Shown here: piece by piece, positions 13,150 through 19,319 of the stretch | How the letters are laid out: every line of letters starts with the position of its first letter | Numbering within the stretch: position 1 is the first letter of the stretch | From: Escherichia coli | GTDB lineage: Bacteria; Pseudomonadota; Gammaproteobacteria; Enterobacterales; Enterobacteriaceae | Reading direction: 5' to 3' (one strand) | Length of the DNA stretch: 64,000 bases | Assembly: GCF_001677475.2 (NCBI RefSeq) | Contig: NZ_CP015229.1 | Made by a program: the position numbers and the translations under genes | The notes under the pieces: generated by a model | The model's input: the letters and a program-made list of their open reading frames with translations, nothing else | The model's database searches: none | What the model was told of the DNA's origin: nothing

Positions 13150-13380
13150 AATCCCTTTTCGGAAGAGATTTTATTGAAAGTCACTTGTTGACTTTCTCGC
13201 GAAAAGTAATTTTTTAAATTTTTTATGCGGGGAAGTGGACGGTGAAAGCAGGCGTTAAATCGTGGGAATTTCAGTCTGAAATTTTTCTAAAAAATATATT
13301 TAAATCATAATGTTATCAATGAAATTGGCGCAGGACATTTTAGGCAGGGGAGGAGGCTAAAACCACCTCCCACCAGCGGG
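13150..13380. other. parS: parS centromere region (approximate)
   Basis: AT-rich region just downstream of parB with repeated tgaaat/atttca heptamer-like boxes. Confidence 0.4.
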
Positions 13381-15659: not shown

Positions 15660-15950
15660 TATTAGATGTGTGCTGGAGGGATGATGCAGGACCAGAATGT
15701 GCGATAGAGGGAAGTCGCATTGAATTATGTGCTGTGGAGGGATCGCTGGTATCAAATATGTGTGCTGGAGGGAAAGGCAGAGAATTACATGTGCACTGGA
15801 GGGAAAAACGGATGGACAGATGTGTGCTGGAGGGAAAGTCTGGGCAAACTGCGGGGCGTCCCCCTCCAGCGCACATCAAAAACAGGAAATTGGACAAGCC
15901 TTCCCGTCAGCACACATTTTTTTAATGCAGCTTCCCTCCAGCACACACTT
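15660..15950. repeat. incA: incA iteron array (RepA-binding 19-mers, both orientations)
   Basis: about 8-9 copies of GATGTGTGCTGGAGGGAAA-like repeats at roughly 15665, 15724, 15757, 15787, 15820 (+) and 15850, 15895, 15925 (-). Confidence 0.85.
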
Positions 15951-16859: not shown

Positions 16860-17095
16860 CCAGGCTTTCCCGTCAGCACACATCCTATATCCCGCCAGCA
16901 CACATTAGCAACCCGTCAGCACACATTTTTATCCCTCCAGCACACATCGTTTTCCCTCCAGCACACATCGCGATACACTTCTAAGCCAGACGTGACGCGG
17001 CCTGCAACGATCAGGGATCTATATGGATCTAATTGGGATCTGTATGGACCTAATTATTGGATCTACCCAGTGGATAATGTGGATAAGTGAAAAAC
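16860..17095. other. oriR: incC iterons plus oriR (GATC cluster and tandem DnaA boxes)
   Basis: five CCAGCACACAT-type iterons 16866-16969; five GATC sites 17009-17063; tgtggataa DnaA box 17078-17086 and near-copy 17070-17078. Confidence 0.85.
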
Positions 17096-17126
17096 CGGCC
17101 AACATAGCCGGTTGGAAGGAAGGGTA

Positions 17127-17519
17127 TTATTCTACGCTTTCGATAAGAAGACCATGTTCATAACATTTAAGCTCATCGCCTTCGTACAGGAATTGGTATC
17201 CAATACCACCATTTTCATGGACATTAGGGAATAACTCATAACTCACTGAAGAGCAAATCACACCAATGCAACGATCAACGCCTTCTCGTTCTTCAGTGCT
17301 GAAAAAATCCTCTTCGGTAAGAACATGAGTACATTGCTCATCAGCATAGGTCGGAAATACATGCTCGATGCAATCCGGGTGTTTTAAACCAAGCTGATCG
17401 GCAAGCTCGAAAGCATGACGGTATTGTTCAGATCCTGGCTTGCCAACAGTGATGTGCTCAATTTTGTAGATTGAAGTCGCTTTGTTGATAGTTTGCTTTA
17501 CTGTTACTTTATCAGACAT
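17127..17519 (-). CDS. hypothetical protein
   Basis: 130 aa ORF next to oriR. Confidence 0.45.
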   Translation of the reverse strand: MSDKVTVKQTINKATSIYKIEHITVGKPGSEQYRHAFELADQLGLKHPDCIEHVFPTYADEQCTHVLTEEDFFSTEEREGVDRCIGVICSSVSYELFPNVHENGGIGYQFLYEGDELKCYEHGLLIESVE

Positions 17520-17530
17520 AAAAATCCCTT

Positions 17531-17863
17531 TTAGTTACCGCTGATAGCGCGGTTGTAATCATTAACGTTGCGATTCTTCCTGTTAATCCCCATCAGCATC
17601 GTTTCTGTATCGAGGATATACGCTGGCAGATCATCAAAATATTCACTGCTAAACTCTGGCATTCTGCACATAAATGCACTTTTGGGGGCAGGGTGGTTAA
17701 CCTTTGTCGGCGTCGGCGTTAAATTCGCTGATCGACTCCCGGAGCAACCGCTGAGTGTCAGCAGGAATGCGCTGGCGAACATTACCCGCCGCAACCAGTT
17801 GTTTCTGAACTTCAGCTTTTCGTTCCATTTGCCTGTCAGCATATTTGGCTTGTTCTGATTCAT
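17531..17863 (-). CDS. lipoprotein (o-spanin-like); true start probably internal near 17782
   Basis: signal peptide plus lipobox LTLSGCSG, proline-rich TPTPTKVNHPAP; 5' end overlaps the upstream gene in another frame. Confidence 0.5.
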   Translation of the reverse strand: MNQNKPNMLTGKWNEKLKFRNNWLRRVMFASAFLLTLSGCSGSRSANLTPTPTKVNHPAPKSAFMCRMPEFSSEYFDDLPAYILDTETMLMGINRKNRNVNDYNRAISGN

Positions 17864-18146
17864 TTTTCACTTCCTGGCTGTGAAAATGTTGCTCTGCTTT
17901 GTTCATCGTCTCAATGGTCTGGTTAAGATCCATTATTGACTTATCACGTTCCTTAACAGCCTGATCAAGACTGCCAATTTTCTCCATGGCTTGCTTTAGC
18001 TGATGACGTTCCCATGCAAACCCAGCACCAACAAGTGCGCAAATCAGAACAAGAACACCAGTAGCAGCAAGTTTCTCCTTCAAAGACAAAGCTGTTTTTA
18101 ACGTAGAAAAGAATGACATGTCTTCCTCCTGAAGAAAAATTATCAA
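17697..18146 (-). CDS. membrane-anchored coiled-coil protein (i-spanin-like)
   Basis: N-terminal TM GVLVLICALVGAGFAW followed by charged coiled-coil region; 3' end overlaps lipoprotein gene. Confidence 0.5.
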   Translation of the reverse strand: MIIFLQEEDMSFFSTLKTALSLKEKLAATGVLVLICALVGAGFAWERHQLKQAMEKIGSLDQAVKERDKSIMDLNQTIETMNKAEQHFHSQEVKNESEQAKYADRQMERKAEVQKQLVAAGNVRQRIPADTQRLLRESISEFNADADKG

Positions 18147-18418
18147 TGAAGTCCTTTGTTACTGTGCCGCTTTGTTTAATTCATCAAGAACAGAATCAGG
18201 AACCAAAGCGGCGACTGCGCTGGCTGTGCTGGTCTTATTTGCTGATGCTTCCGCAAGCGCGGTACCAATAGCATGGCCATAAGCAGTTATGGCTATGCTG
18301 GCGCTTTCCTTCGCCCGTTCATACTGCTGTTGCAATGCAACAGTGGGCGCTGTTGTTTGGTTGAAAACTCCCCCAAACTGTTCAGTTGCTACTTTCAGAG
18401 CTTCAATTTGCTTTTCTG

Positions 18419-18946
18419 TTAGTGCTGGTGGGGGAATGGCAGTGCCGCCGCCTGAACCAGTGCCTGACGAGCTTTCAGAGCCAGTGTTAAGGGTCTGGTT
18501 AATCTCCCCATAGCAGCGACTAAACTTGATGTATTAAGCGCGTTTACAGCGTCCTCAAGCGATTTAGTAATAGTCACATCACCAATGGCAATAGAGATTG
18601 GCAGTTCTGAAACTTCTCGCTCATTAGCACGGCAGTAAACATCCCAACCAATATCGAGTTGAAGCAGCATTGACAGATCTGCATAACCAGCCAACAGGTC
18701 CGCGTGCTTAGTTGCCAGTTCTCCAATGTTCGTTAAGCCGGTTGTGGTTGTTCTGATCGTTGAAACATAGCTGGTAATAGTGTCAGGATAGACAATTGTA
18801 TCCAAAATTAATCCGGTCAATTCTTCTGCAAGCTGTTTTGCCGTGTTAGCACTGCTTCGTGCCGATGTTATGGCACCTGGTGTTTTCATCCCACCGGCTG
18901 CGGCCAATTTTTTATATGCGGATAATTGGTAGTCTTTTTCCAGCAT
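18419..18946 (-). CDS. hypothetical protein
   Basis: 175 aa ORF. Confidence 0.45.
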   Translation of the reverse strand: MLEKDYQLSAYKKLAAAGGMKTPGAITSARSSANTAKQLAEELTGLILDTIVYPDTITSYVSTIRTTTTGLTNIGELATKHADLLAGYADLSMLLQLDIGWDVYCRANEREVSELPISIAIGDVTITKSLEDAVNALNTSSLVAAMGRLTRPLTLALKARQALVQAAALPFPHQH

Positions 18947-18954
18947 GATATCTC

Positions 18955-19239
18955 CTAACTTACCTGAACCAGGCCGTCACCTGACGCTACGGTAGAGCCG
19001 CATGAAACAGGGTCACCAACGCATACGATCCCTTTACCATTGACGGTAAACCATGCCCTGGTTGATATAGCTTGCCCACCGTGCGTACTGTTTCCATCGG
19101 TATGCTGTGCATATTGCTTACCATCAACTAACACTTCGACTCCGTTGACTTTAAGTAGTGGTTCACTCTCTACAGGAGGCCTGGATGGGAATCCTCCGTG
19201 CCCCGAACAAATGCTGTCTTTTGTTGCAATACTTGCCAC
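18955..19239 (-). CDS. PAAR-like small protein (putative spike tip)
   Basis: 94 aa; CSGHGG, HTDGNSTHGG, GDPVSCG motifs. Confidence 0.45.
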   Translation of the reverse strand: MASIATKDSICSGHGGFPSRPPVESEPLLKVNGVEVLVDGKQYAQHTDGNSTHGGQAISTRAWFTVNGKGIVCVGDPVSCGSTVASGDGLVQVS

Positions 19240-19319
19240 GTAATCACCAATTATTTGCTCTGGTTTTCGTTATTTTAACCTATGTTACTTGTGGTCTACA
19301 TAGCGTTCACTATTGCATA

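Follow-up and report, generated by a model that had tools for sequence, protein, structure and literature searches.

The ppfA/mlp genes in a P1-like phage-plasmid: a probable overlapped two-component spanin

Introduction

Spanins are two-part systems that break the outer membrane in the final step of cell lysis. In phage lambda the two parts are Rz and Rz1, a type II inner-membrane helical protein and a small lipoprotein of the outer membrane that is read from the +1 frame, with the Rz1 gene wholly embedded in that of Rz and the pair forming part of the S-R-Rz cassette. Phage P2 shows a different layout, in which lysC begins within lysB and ends beyond it (the overlapped arrangement), the two genes directly following those for the holin and endolysin. 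The T4 spanin genes, PseT.3/PseT.2, are separate from one another, and they are also unlinked to the holin and endolysin genes of that phage.

For P1 itself the assignment of the gene pair ppfA/mlp as an overlapped spanin is already known: it was published in 2007, and a curated spanin database has carried it since 2018. The P1 entry in SpaninDB (Kongari 2018, PMC6139136 supplement) has the class ‘ovl’ and belongs to the ‘P1’ family of overlapped two-component spanins; gp064 (PpfA) is given as a 140-aa i-spanin with a periplasmic domain of 104 aa and no periplasmic Cys, and gp063 (Mlp) as a 110-aa o-spanin with a mature form of 71 aa and one Cys. Bednarek 2022 (PMC9025707) makes the same assignment, crediting it to Summer 2007. 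Several GenBank/RefSeq records label the two genes Rz/Rz1, while the P1 annotation of mlp mentions, by homology, a possible part in lysis regulation. Both genes are among the 21 extremely conserved genes of 77 P1-like phage-plasmids (PMC9603915), and the locus was found here in 765 plasmid records.

A first-pass annotation of the DNA discussed below, made from sequence alone, had arrived at a spanin reading for such a pair. The observation proves to be real but ordinary: that reading is partly confirmed, with corrections, and its interpretation is supported. Its discovery value is small, as the pair, the overlap architecture and the spanin assignment have all been published; what can be added is modest, namely comparative proof of selection on both frames, the correct start of ppfA and a structural outline of both subunits.

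The locus and its surroundings

The window (the whole stretch of DNA analysed, 64,000 nucleotides from Escherichia coli contig NZ_CP015229.1) is, judged by its sequence, a P1-like phage-plasmid, and the minus-strand pair at 17531..18119 corresponds to ppfA/mlp of P1. Nucleotide identity to P1 and P7 is 95-97% over the 2.5 kb that comprise repA-upfA-mlp-ppfA-upfB-upfC, and this gene order, which together with near-identical sequence was taken as the mark of P1 orthology, is common to the window and P1. Relative to P1 (NC_005856), PpfA has one changed residue (I45M, giving 99% identity; matches at 99% also appear in the homologue search) and Mlp has two (S7N, V32A). The ribosome-binding sites (RBSs), the 167-nt +1 overlap and the flanking genes (repA-upfA on one side, upfB-upfC on the other) are the same in both, so far as ppfA/mlp are concerned the differences from P1 and P7 being allelic only.

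ppfA and mlp are co-oriented, tightly packed genes within a five-gene unit on the minus strand, of which the first two genes encode virion tail-tip proteins. The first, upfC (18955..19239), specifies a PAAR-type spike-tip protein (PAAR_motif at 8.5e-6, just below the Pfam cut-off; phrog_281 at 2e-30), and the second, upfB (18159..18946), which lies directly upstream of ppfA, specifies the tail-tip ‘tripod’ protein, although in the window its frame is shifted by a 1-nt deletion near 18506. Since cryo-EM identifies UpfC, a monomer on the gp5 spike, and UpfB as virion baseplate proteins (PMC12810830), the upfC-upfA operon must be expressed in lytic growth. The last gene, upfA (17127..17519, minus strand), is replaceable, its place in relatives being taken by a Phage_gp49_66 gene or by nothing at all. 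A terminator-like hairpin, AACCGGC...GCCGGTT followed by TTTTCACTTAT (17093..17113, minus strand), which was picked out purely by consensus scan, would end the unit just before oriR.

It had been stated that the pair lies beside oriR, and in terms of distance this is fair, since the five RepA iterons (incC) of oriR at 16866..16969 and the nine incA iterons at 15666-15949 (both located by iteron scan and from the P1 annotation, and both context outside the spanin unit) are close; however, upfA and the hairpin intervene, so that the two do not abut. This position is in any case the normal P1 arrangement. The accompanying remark that recognisable holin or endolysin genes are missing from the vicinity holds good, as lyz, lydD/E and lydA/B/C all fall outside the window, and on the circular map ppfA/mlp are some 45 kb from lyz. 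A place within a holin/endolysin cassette is typical of spanin genes, not defining for them; here the neighbours are instead upfA, repA/oriR, upfB and upfC. P1 lysis genes are scattered over several operons (PMC9025707), and the odd location is explained by the pair forming the tail end of the tail-tip operon while the other scattered lysis genes lie beyond the window.

Regarding transcription, the P1 annotation shows only weak predicted sigma-70 promoters upstream of the unit, and no Lpa-dependent late promoter there. The window has 9 matches to a pattern for such late promoters derived from LPlyz, AAGTGATTT-N4-TANNNT, where 7.2 would be expected, which is uninformative; to read anything into the look-alike upstream of upfC at 19290-19272 (minus strand) would be unsupported speculation. 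In neither of two P1 transcriptome papers does the main text mention mlp, ppfA, upfB or upfC.

Coding status of the two reading frames

On comparative sequence evidence, both frames are genuine protein-coding genes, each with its own RBS. The list of open reading frames agrees with the two overlapping minus-strand frames reported at the first pass, the second being in the +1 frame: ppfA (17697..18119), the i-spanin candidate, was identified from its ORF of 140 aa, its identity to P1 PpfA, its phrog_89 match and its AlphaFold2 model, while mlp (17531..17863), the o-spanin candidate, was identified from an ORF for a 110-aa lipoprotein precursor together with PHROGs matches, dN/dS, AlphaFold2 and SpaninDB. 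The 167 nt that they share (17697..17863, minus strand) comprise codons 86-140 and the stop codon of ppfA, and codons 1-55 of mlp.

The length of 149 aa originally given for PpfA needs to be corrected to 140 aa, counted from the ATG at 18119, which follows an AGGAGG (18125..18130, minus strand) located 5 nt upstream. The TTG at 18146 that would give the longer form is not the start, because this AGGAGG lies inside the nine extra codons, ahead of the ATG, and its choice was an artefact of the ORF finder. The AGGAGG is retained in the window, in P1 and in four diverged relatives, SpaninDB has the same site, and PpfA homologues all begin MS[FI]FSTL. The RBS of mlp (17870..17875, minus strand) is embedded in ppfA codons Q82-E83-V84-K85; its sequence is AGGAAG in both the window and P1, whereas the relatives L003-L006 have AGGAGG, and it is always found 6-8 nt before a conserved ATG. 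Two alternative starts for mlp were rejected, Met8 and Met28, neither of which has an RBS; Met8 is not conserved, and a start at Met28 would, in P1, leave no basic n-region.

The overlap itself is a stable property of the pair. It measures 164-167 nt, in the +1 frame, in the window, P1 and L003-L006, and the genes also overlap in the more distant relatives L008 and L010; 8 lineages retain the overlapped lipoprotein ORF complete with lipobox and Cys66, among them L008/L010, in which PpfA identity is down to 29-31%, and the frame, lipobox and both RBSs persist in relatives at both 59-64% and 29-31% PpfA identity. Substitution patterns point in the same direction. In the part belonging to mlp only (54 non-overlapped codons) dN/dS is 0.05-0.15 in the mlp frame, as against 1.4-6.8 in the shifted frames, and in the part belonging to ppfA only it is 0.14-0.27. 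Synonymous divergence in the ppfA frame (pS) is 0.43-0.53 in the overlap compared with 0.65-0.70 in the ppfA-only part of the same pairs. Within the overlap dN/dS for the mlp frame exceeds 1, but this is confined to the weakly constrained n-region of the signal peptide, and the h-region and lipobox are conserved despite it. The first-pass annotation had named an untranslated lipoprotein frame as an outcome that would sink its interpretation; the conserved RBS, start and lipobox, together with the low dN/dS, indicate that the frame is translated.

Features of the two predicted proteins

PpfA is predicted to start with a short cytoplasmic stretch, cross the membrane as a helix and continue into a periplasmic domain of 104 aa, in which a long helix is followed by a hinge and then a C-terminal helix; it would thus have the single N-terminal membrane helix and helical or coiled-coil periplasmic domain expected of an i-spanin. 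As proposed earlier, there is one N-terminal transmembrane helix, residues 17-35 of the 140-aa form (LAATGVLVLICALVGAGFA; codons at 18015..18071, minus strand), this being the best 19-aa Kyte-Doolittle window, with a mean of 2.35. It contains the sole Cys of the protein, as in the SpaninDB remark ‘one [Cys] in TMD’. The flanking charges suggest a type II topology, with the N-terminus inside. The AlphaFold2 model (mean pLDDT 75.6) has helices at 13-110 and 120-138, between which residues 111-119 form the hinge, and hydrophobic periodicity gives p=0.003 at 3.6 residues and p=0.04 at 3.5 residues, in keeping with the long coiled-coil region originally described.

Mlp is predicted to begin with a signal peptide of 39 aa, the n-region of which is long and basic; in the mature part, of 71 aa, an extended linker leads to a C-terminal helix. 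The lipobox claimed for it is present as L37-S38-G39-C40 (17744..17755, minus strand; cleavage LTLSG/C), Cys40 (17744-17746) being the residue predicted to be lipidated. In all 8 of the 8 aligned Mlp homologues Cys40 is invariant, ‘FLL.L..C’ is conserved and the +2 residue is Ser; as this residue is Ser and not Asp, sorting to the outer membrane is predicted, and Mlp would thereby have both attributes of an o-spanin, a signal peptidase II signal with lipobox and a +2 position free of Asp. SpaninDB (PMC6139136) likewise places the LipoP cleavage site at position 39, though it flags the 39-aa signal as ‘too long’ and as having no PROSITE lipobox match, and the unusual length of the signal peptide was counted against the spanin reading. 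The AlphaFold2 model shows the C-terminal helix at 76-109 (34 residues, pLDDT 85-92) after an extended linker of about 36 residues. A proline-rich mature N-terminus had also been described; there is some enrichment, but it is only modest (4 Pro in the first 25 residues and 6 of 71 overall, one of them invariant).

It was further suggested that periplasmic Cys residues be sought in both proteins. Only one is present in the pair, Cys66 of Mlp (mature residue 27; codon 17666..17668, minus strand), invariant within a motif M-C in 8 of 8 homologues, and PpfA has none. Of 528 catalogued systems, 507 have at least one such Cys in one or other protein that could enter an intermolecular disulfide, and Cys66 makes a disulfide a candidate feature here too; because PpfA lacks periplasmic Cys, covalent stabilisation would be possible only through a Cys66-Cys66 disulfide in an Mlp homodimer.

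Relationship to known spanins

Spanin-specific profile searches, which had been put forward as a check, gave a divided result, positive in PHROGs and otherwise not. Both proteins fall among the PHROGs ‘Rz-like spanin’ families: PpfA matches three independent ones, phrog_89 at 1.5e-25 (profile positions 3-137 of 143), phrog_739 at 1.2e-5 and phrog_214 at 1.1e-4, and for Mlp there is a full-length match to phrog_30284 at 2.2e-77 and a second match to phrog_456 at 4e-5. There are caveats, in that the phrog_30284 match is partly circular because that family is probably the P1-like Mlp cluster itself, PHROG spanin labels may more generally derive in part from P1-family members, and matches among proteins combining a membrane helix with a coiled coil can be driven by composition. 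Neither protein matches Pfam PF03245 (Phage_lysis, Rz) or PF06085 (Rz1) even at E<=1, BLASTP against lambda Rz and Rz1 is not significant (E 0.26 and 0.007), and hhalign of the PpfA family profile with lambda Rz and P2 LysB gives a probability of 2-3%, the value for LysB being 2%. The sole NCBIfam signals are to the corresponding P2 subunits and are below cut-off, at 19.0 bits against 92.75 for PpfA with LysB (TIGR03495) and 14.3 against 27 for Mlp with LysC (NF038368). With all four methods sub-threshold, the pair was not filed under the Rz/Rz1 or LysB/LysC sequence families.

The PpfA family is also a narrow one. A profile search of 1.84 billion representatives returned 40 matches, mostly P1-like fragments, the long multi-stretch matches probably being coiled-coil noise. 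The full-length distant relatives are P0078, in a further P1-like plasmid where the order of genes is unchanged, P0084, on a contig of 1.2 kb, and the weak P0096 (E 2e-4), found in L011. The last of these lies directly after two small membrane proteins and directly before a separate lipoprotein gene, a layout like that of a lysis cassette.

As in lambda Rz/Rz1, a type II inner-membrane helical protein is combined in the P1 pair with a small lipoprotein of the outer membrane, for which the +1 frame is used, and the mechanism is presumably shared as well, whereby a periplasm-spanning C-terminal complex would fuse the membranes. However, whereas the Rz1 gene is wholly embedded, mlp runs for 166 nt beyond the ppfA stop codon, placing the pair in the overlapped class; Rz has two periplasmic Cys residues where PpfA has none; mature Rz1 is of 40 aa, very proline-rich and without a predicted helix, compared with 71 aa and a predicted 34-residue C-terminal helix for Mlp; and ppfA/mlp occupy an operon separate from the P1 endolysin and holin genes. 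The overlap is of the type seen in P2 lysB/lysC, although ppfA/mlp do not follow holin and endolysin genes as that pair does. T4 provides a parallel for an i-spanin with no periplasmic Cys, and for an o-spanin that exceeds Rz1 in size and is predicted to form a C-terminal helix (PMC6139136), but its genes are separated where those of P1 overlap, and its o-spanin has two periplasmic Cys, both essential (PMC6139136), where Mlp has one.

Proposed function and alternative explanations

Taken together, these features make it very probable that ppfA/mlp encode a two-component spanin with overlapped gene architecture, and the overlapped i-spanin/o-spanin reading originally offered is one on which PHROGs, SpaninDB and Summer 2007 (as cited in PMC9025707) concur as a prediction. 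The membrane and lysis steps are modelled on lambda Rz/Rz1 (Berry 2008, 2012; Rajaure 2015, all as represented in PMC9025707). By this analogy PpfA would be inserted in the inner membrane, its N-terminus facing the cytoplasm, and Mlp, once exported and lipidated, would reach the outer membrane through the Lol pathway and sit in its inner leaflet, so that the periplasmic C-terminal parts of the two could bind and form a bridge through the peptidoglycan mesh. Destruction of the peptidoglycan at lysis would fall to three holins (LydA, LydC and LydD) together with Lyz, the SAR-endolysin; the freed PpfA-Mlp complexes could then move and collapse, so that the two membranes fuse and nothing further holds back the phage. 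Expression of ppfA/mlp would probably be joint with that of the late tail-tip genes upfC and upfB.

Certain points count against this reading. The spanin status of PpfA/Mlp in publication is itself a prediction (PMC9025707), sequence homology to lambda Rz/Rz1 or P2 LysB is undetectable, and the pair is away from holin and endolysin genes. There is also a published CRISPRi study, in which the plating efficiency was 1.2-1.3 on knockdown of ppfA and about 0.2 on knockdown of mlp, both genes being scored as non-essential for plaques, while lambda Rz was scored as essential in the same study. One may conceive of the P1-family spanin as a mechanistically distinct type, regulated differently from cassette-borne spanins; as plaques showed no defect on CRISPRi knockdown, P1 might not need it for lysis, or it might also act in the lysogen envelope. 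This appears improbable. It would draw on the Cys-free periplasmic part of the i-spanin, the single invariant Cys of the o-spanin and its long C-terminal helix, would take the long basic n-region of Mlp as a by-product of the overlap, and would have the genes transcribed with upfC/upfB, possibly from sigma-70 promoters active in the plasmid prophage.

An explanation that dispenses with lysis altogether is that Mlp is an envelope lipoprotein expressed by the prophage in the plasmid-lysogen state, acting in superinfection exclusion or host fitness, for which T5 Llp, the Cor proteins and lambda Bor would be the models, with PpfA as a separate periplasm-facing partner. The proximity of the plasmid replication/partition region, the purely sigma-70-type promoters predicted upstream in the P1 annotation, the CRISPRi result, the placing of the pair outside Pfam Rz/Rz1 and the lack of a lysis phenotype for ppfA/mlp in published work (PMC9025707) are all compatible with it. 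Against this, the strict pairing of a type II helical membrane protein with a +1-overlapped outer-membrane lipoprotein is the signature of a spanin, both subunits match PHROG spanin families, SpaninDB (PMC6139136) classes the pair as a spanin, and the tight packing of the genes on the same strand behind two tail-tip genes suggests lytic-phase expression. Moreover, P1 has no other spanin candidate, yet phages of Gram-negative hosts need to pass the outer membrane (PMC9025707). The envelope-lipoprotein explanation is consequently considered unlikely.

There is still less to recommend the idea that PpfA and Mlp are accessory factors of the tail-tip membrane-piercing apparatus, working with UpfC/UpfB during infection or assembly and not in lysis. 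The apparent transcription unit that they share with UpfC (the PAAR protein of the spike tip) and UpfB (the tripod protein) would fit, as would the upfC-upfB synteny kept in every diverged P1-like relative examined, but the P1 virion inventory by cryo-EM (PMC12810830) contains neither PpfA nor Mlp, and, to judge from the signal sequences, a Sec/Lol-exported lipoprotein and a protein anchored in the inner membrane could not enter a particle assembled in the cytoplasm. In addition, the weak relative in L011 pairs with a lipoprotein gene near small membrane proteins and has no PAAR or tripod genes nearby. This possibility is accordingly very remote.

Finally, that the lipoprotein frame is an untranslated, chance open frame over and beyond ppfA can be given almost no credence, for although gene callers often skip mlp (it is missing from OP279344, and metagenome calls consist of 46-63-aa 3' fragments only) and its dN/dS inside the overlap exceeds 1, the comparative sequence data already refute it, through purifying dN/dS over the 54 non-overlapped codons in the mlp frame only, the restriction of values above 1 to the n-region beside a conserved h-region and lipobox, and the conservation of ORF, RBS, lipobox, Cys66 and C-terminal motifs even in relatives whose PpfA is only about 30% identical, and the confidently modelled C-terminal helix of Mlp agrees with this.

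Gene structure and overlap

When the segment 16800-19300 was compared with phage genomes by megablast, it was found to be 97.1% identical to P1 record OP279344 and 95.1-95.2% identical to the P1 reference and to P7. The P1 reference annotation gives the minus-strand order as upfC, upfB, ppfA, mlp, upfA, then oriR, repA, incA and parA, and the locus is found in 765 plasmid records, the majority of them from E. coli; taken together, these sequence comparisons identify the window as a P1-like phage-plasmid.

ORF listing and reading of the minus strand between 15.5 and 20.5 kb reveal two overlapping ORFs. The longer was listed as 17697..18146 (149 aa from TTG), but this start is an ORF-finder artefact, as the ribosome-binding site AGGAGG (18125-18130, minus strand) falls within its first nine codons. 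Given the position of this site, 5 nt before an ATG at 18119, and the N-terminus MS[FI]FSTL seen in all homologues, ppfA is 17697..18119 (minus strand) and encodes 140 aa. The ORF of mlp (17531..17863, minus strand; 110 aa from ATG) begins 256 nt downstream of the ppfA start in the +1 frame and shares 167 nt with it, so that the first-pass annotation was right about an overlap in a different frame, but not about the 149-aa length. Its own ribosome-binding site, AGGAAG (17870-17875, minus strand), lies inside ppfA codons 82-85, within the conserved codons for QEVK; neither Q82 nor E83 varies among close family members, perhaps owing to a double constraint from the protein and from this site.

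Gene callers frequently overlook or shorten mlp: it is absent from the annotation of OP279344, the closest P1 record, and in metagenome and Logan contigs it is called only as 3' fragments of 46-63 aa. This matches a known bias against overlapped o-spanin genes.

Selection on both reading frames

The pair was compared with four P1-like relatives (L003-L006; PpfA 59-64% identical) and two distant ones (L008 and L010; 29-31%). All six keep the +1-frame lipoprotein ORF (overlap about 164-167 nt), the mlp ATG preceded by a ribosome-binding site, a lipobox (LTL[SN][GA]C or LSLSSC), Ser at position +2, a second Cys in the motif M-C, and the C-terminal motifs DL..Y and N.KN..VN.YN. Nei-Gojobori estimates of dN/dS are 0.14-0.27 for the ppfA-only part in the ppfA frame and 0.05-0.15 for the mlp-only part in the mlp frame, with shifted-frame controls on these same parts giving 0.8-6.8; in the overlap, the ppfA frame gives 0.08-0.23. 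In this frame pS is lower in the overlap (0.43-0.53) than in the ppfA-only part (0.65-0.70), as would be expected from dual coding. Within the overlap the n-region of the Mlp signal is free to evolve, yet it remains rich in Lys and Arg. The conserved features and the dN/dS values refute the reading of the lipoprotein frame as a chance ORF; the frame is genuine, and is retained in relatives down to 29-31% identity.

Predicted protein architecture

In PpfA a single membrane helix covers residues 17-35 (mean Kyte-Doolittle value 2.35), bearing out the N-terminal helix noticed initially. Its periplasmic part is amphipathic, with periodicities of 3.6 residues (p=0.003) and 3.5 residues (p=0.04). 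An AlphaFold2 model (12-sequence alignment, mean pLDDT 75.6) predicts that residues 13-110 form a continuous helix, followed by a hinge (AGNVRQRIP, 111-119) and a further helix, 120-138; the last 25 residues are the most conserved section of the family. The Mlp model (AlphaFold2, mean pLDDT 70) starts with a signal helix, is extended over residues 40-75 and ends in a confidently predicted helix, 76-109 (pLDDT 85-92). The mature N-terminus, described earlier as proline-rich, does contain Pro, one of them invariant, but at only modest content (4 in the first 25 residues). By estimate from these models, a PpfA helix of ~74 residues plus the short helix, together with ~36 extended residues and a 34-residue helix in Mlp, would be enough to cross the periplasm.

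Relationship to known spanins

In PHROGs, PpfA matches phrog_89 (1.5e-25), phrog_739 (1.2e-5) and phrog_214 (1.1e-4), all "Rz-like spanin", and Mlp matches phrog_30284 (2e-77; this is probably the Mlp cluster itself) and phrog_456 (4e-5), so that "Rz-like spanin" families are matched by both proteins. A Pfam search with both gave no Rz or Rz1 match, NCBIfam gave only sub-threshold matches to the corresponding P2 subunits (PpfA to LysB, Mlp to LysC), and neither BLASTP nor hhalign found significant similarity to lambda Rz/Rz1 or P2 LysB. The pair is thus classed as a spanin by predicted architecture and PHROG assignment; sequence homology to Rz/Rz1 could not be demonstrated. Exhaustive profile searching shows the PpfA family to be narrow, essentially limited to P1-like elements. 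One weak outlier, P0096, is preceded by two small membrane proteins and followed by a separate lipoprotein gene, a layout resembling a lysis cassette.

The P1 reference annotates ppfA as "possible periplasmic function", and several other database records name the pair Rz/Rz1 or "Rz-like spanin". The SpaninDB supplement (Kongari et al. 2018, PMC6139136) has a P1 row of class "ovl", in which gp064 is the i-spanin (140 aa, periplasmic domain 104 aa, 0 periplasmic Cys, "one in TMD") and gp063 the o-spanin (110 aa, maturing to 71 aa, 1 periplasmic Cys), with a 39-aa signal marked "Too long signal sequence", a cleavage site called by LipoP at position 39 and no PROSITE match. Relative to these entries, PpfA of the window shows a single substitution (I45M) and its Mlp shows two (S7N, V32A), and the Cys counts (PpfA 0, Mlp 1) answer the check for periplasmic Cys proposed at first pass. 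The introduction of Bednarek et al. 2022 (PMC9025707) calls ppfA the o-spanin and mlp the i-spanin; these labels are reversed, since by sequence the lipoprotein is Mlp, and PpfA is the helical protein anchored in the membrane, in agreement with SpaninDB. Architecture, PHROGs and SpaninDB all support the putative overlapped i-spanin/o-spanin pair; the original observation is real, given corrections to the start codon, the Pro content and what intervenes before the origin. The feature is already known, and for that reason of low interest.

P1-type PpfA has no periplasmic Cys, unlike the most distant homologue, P0084 (29% identity; L010 311-748, plus strand), which has one near the hinge (…KADGCTDVIP…); disulfide patterns are thus not uniform across the family.

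Genomic context

Five oriR iterons (16866-16969) and nine incA iterons (15666-15949) are present, so the description "next to the plasmid origin" is right, although mlp is separated from oriR by upfA and a terminator-like hairpin (17113..17093, minus strand). The observation that the pair is not among holin or endolysin genes holds: mapping P1 onto the window shows that it spans OP279344 only from ~41 kb, through the record end, to ~7 kb, which leaves lyz/lydD/lydE (~16 kb) and lydA/B/C (~26 kb) outside. The lysis genes of P1 are dispersed over several operons (Bednarek et al. 2022, PMC9025707).

The genes upfC-upfB-ppfA-mlp-upfA are closely packed on one strand, between a promoter-like site (19278..19250) and the hairpin. 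A 2026 cryo-EM study (PMC12810830) identified UpfC as the spike tip, of PAAR type, and UpfB as a trimeric "tripod" seated on UpfC; with the five-gene packing, this puts the pair towards the end of an operon for the virion tail tip and points to expression during the lytic phase.

For this unit the P1 annotation predicts only two weak sigma-70 promoters, both inside upfB; the P1 record annotates none for upfC. Upstream of upfC (19250-19290, minus strand) lie a promoter-like TTAAAA-17-AATAAT and an element AAGTAACAT-N4-TAAAAT; the latter bears a loose likeness to the P1 late promoter LPlyz (AAGTGATTT-N4-TATCCT). A pattern derived from LPlyz has 9 matches in the window, too close to the 7.2 expected to be informative. 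Palindromic AAGTGACTTTCAATAAAATCTCTT (13163-13186) fits this pattern on both strands; it lies close to where the head gene meets the par genes and is a possible P1 late promoter.

Proposed mode of action

On the lambda model, PpfA would be anchored in the inner membrane, and Mlp would be lipidated and then sorted to the outer membrane, their C-terminal parts binding each other in a bridge that crosses the periplasm and passes through the mesh of peptidoglycan; once holins and Lyz had degraded the wall, the complexes would collapse, fusing both membranes. Covalent stabilisation would be possible only via an Mlp Cys66 homodimer disulfide.

Weighing against a spanin role, a genome-wide CRISPRi screen gave plating efficiencies of 1.2-1.3 for ppfA and about 0.2 for mlp, rating both non-essential for plaque formation, but rated lambda Rz essential. 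The absent plaque phenotype may be uninformative, since spanins are dispensable for lysis in shaken laboratory cultures (Bednarek et al. 2022, PMC9025707, concerning cultures rather than plaque assays).

Variation in neighbouring genes

Directly upstream of ppfA, upfB (18159-18946, minus strand) carries a 1-nt deletion near 18506 relative to P1 (P1 TGGAGGAC, window TGG-GGAG), which leaves an N-terminal ORF of 175 aa and a C-terminal one of 58 aa. None of the 481 plasmid records matching the 141-bp stretch at the deletion is at least 99% identical, and the seven closest of eight listed matches have one extra base, so the missing base is either unique to this element or the result of a sequencing error. 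What lies between mlp and oriR/repA differs from element to element: upfA (17127-17519, minus strand) in the window and P1, a Phage_gp49_66-domain gene in L003, L004, L006 and L008, and no gene in L005; in phage-plasmid JL22, upfA is interrupted by a blaCTX-M-55 transposon (PMC9603915).
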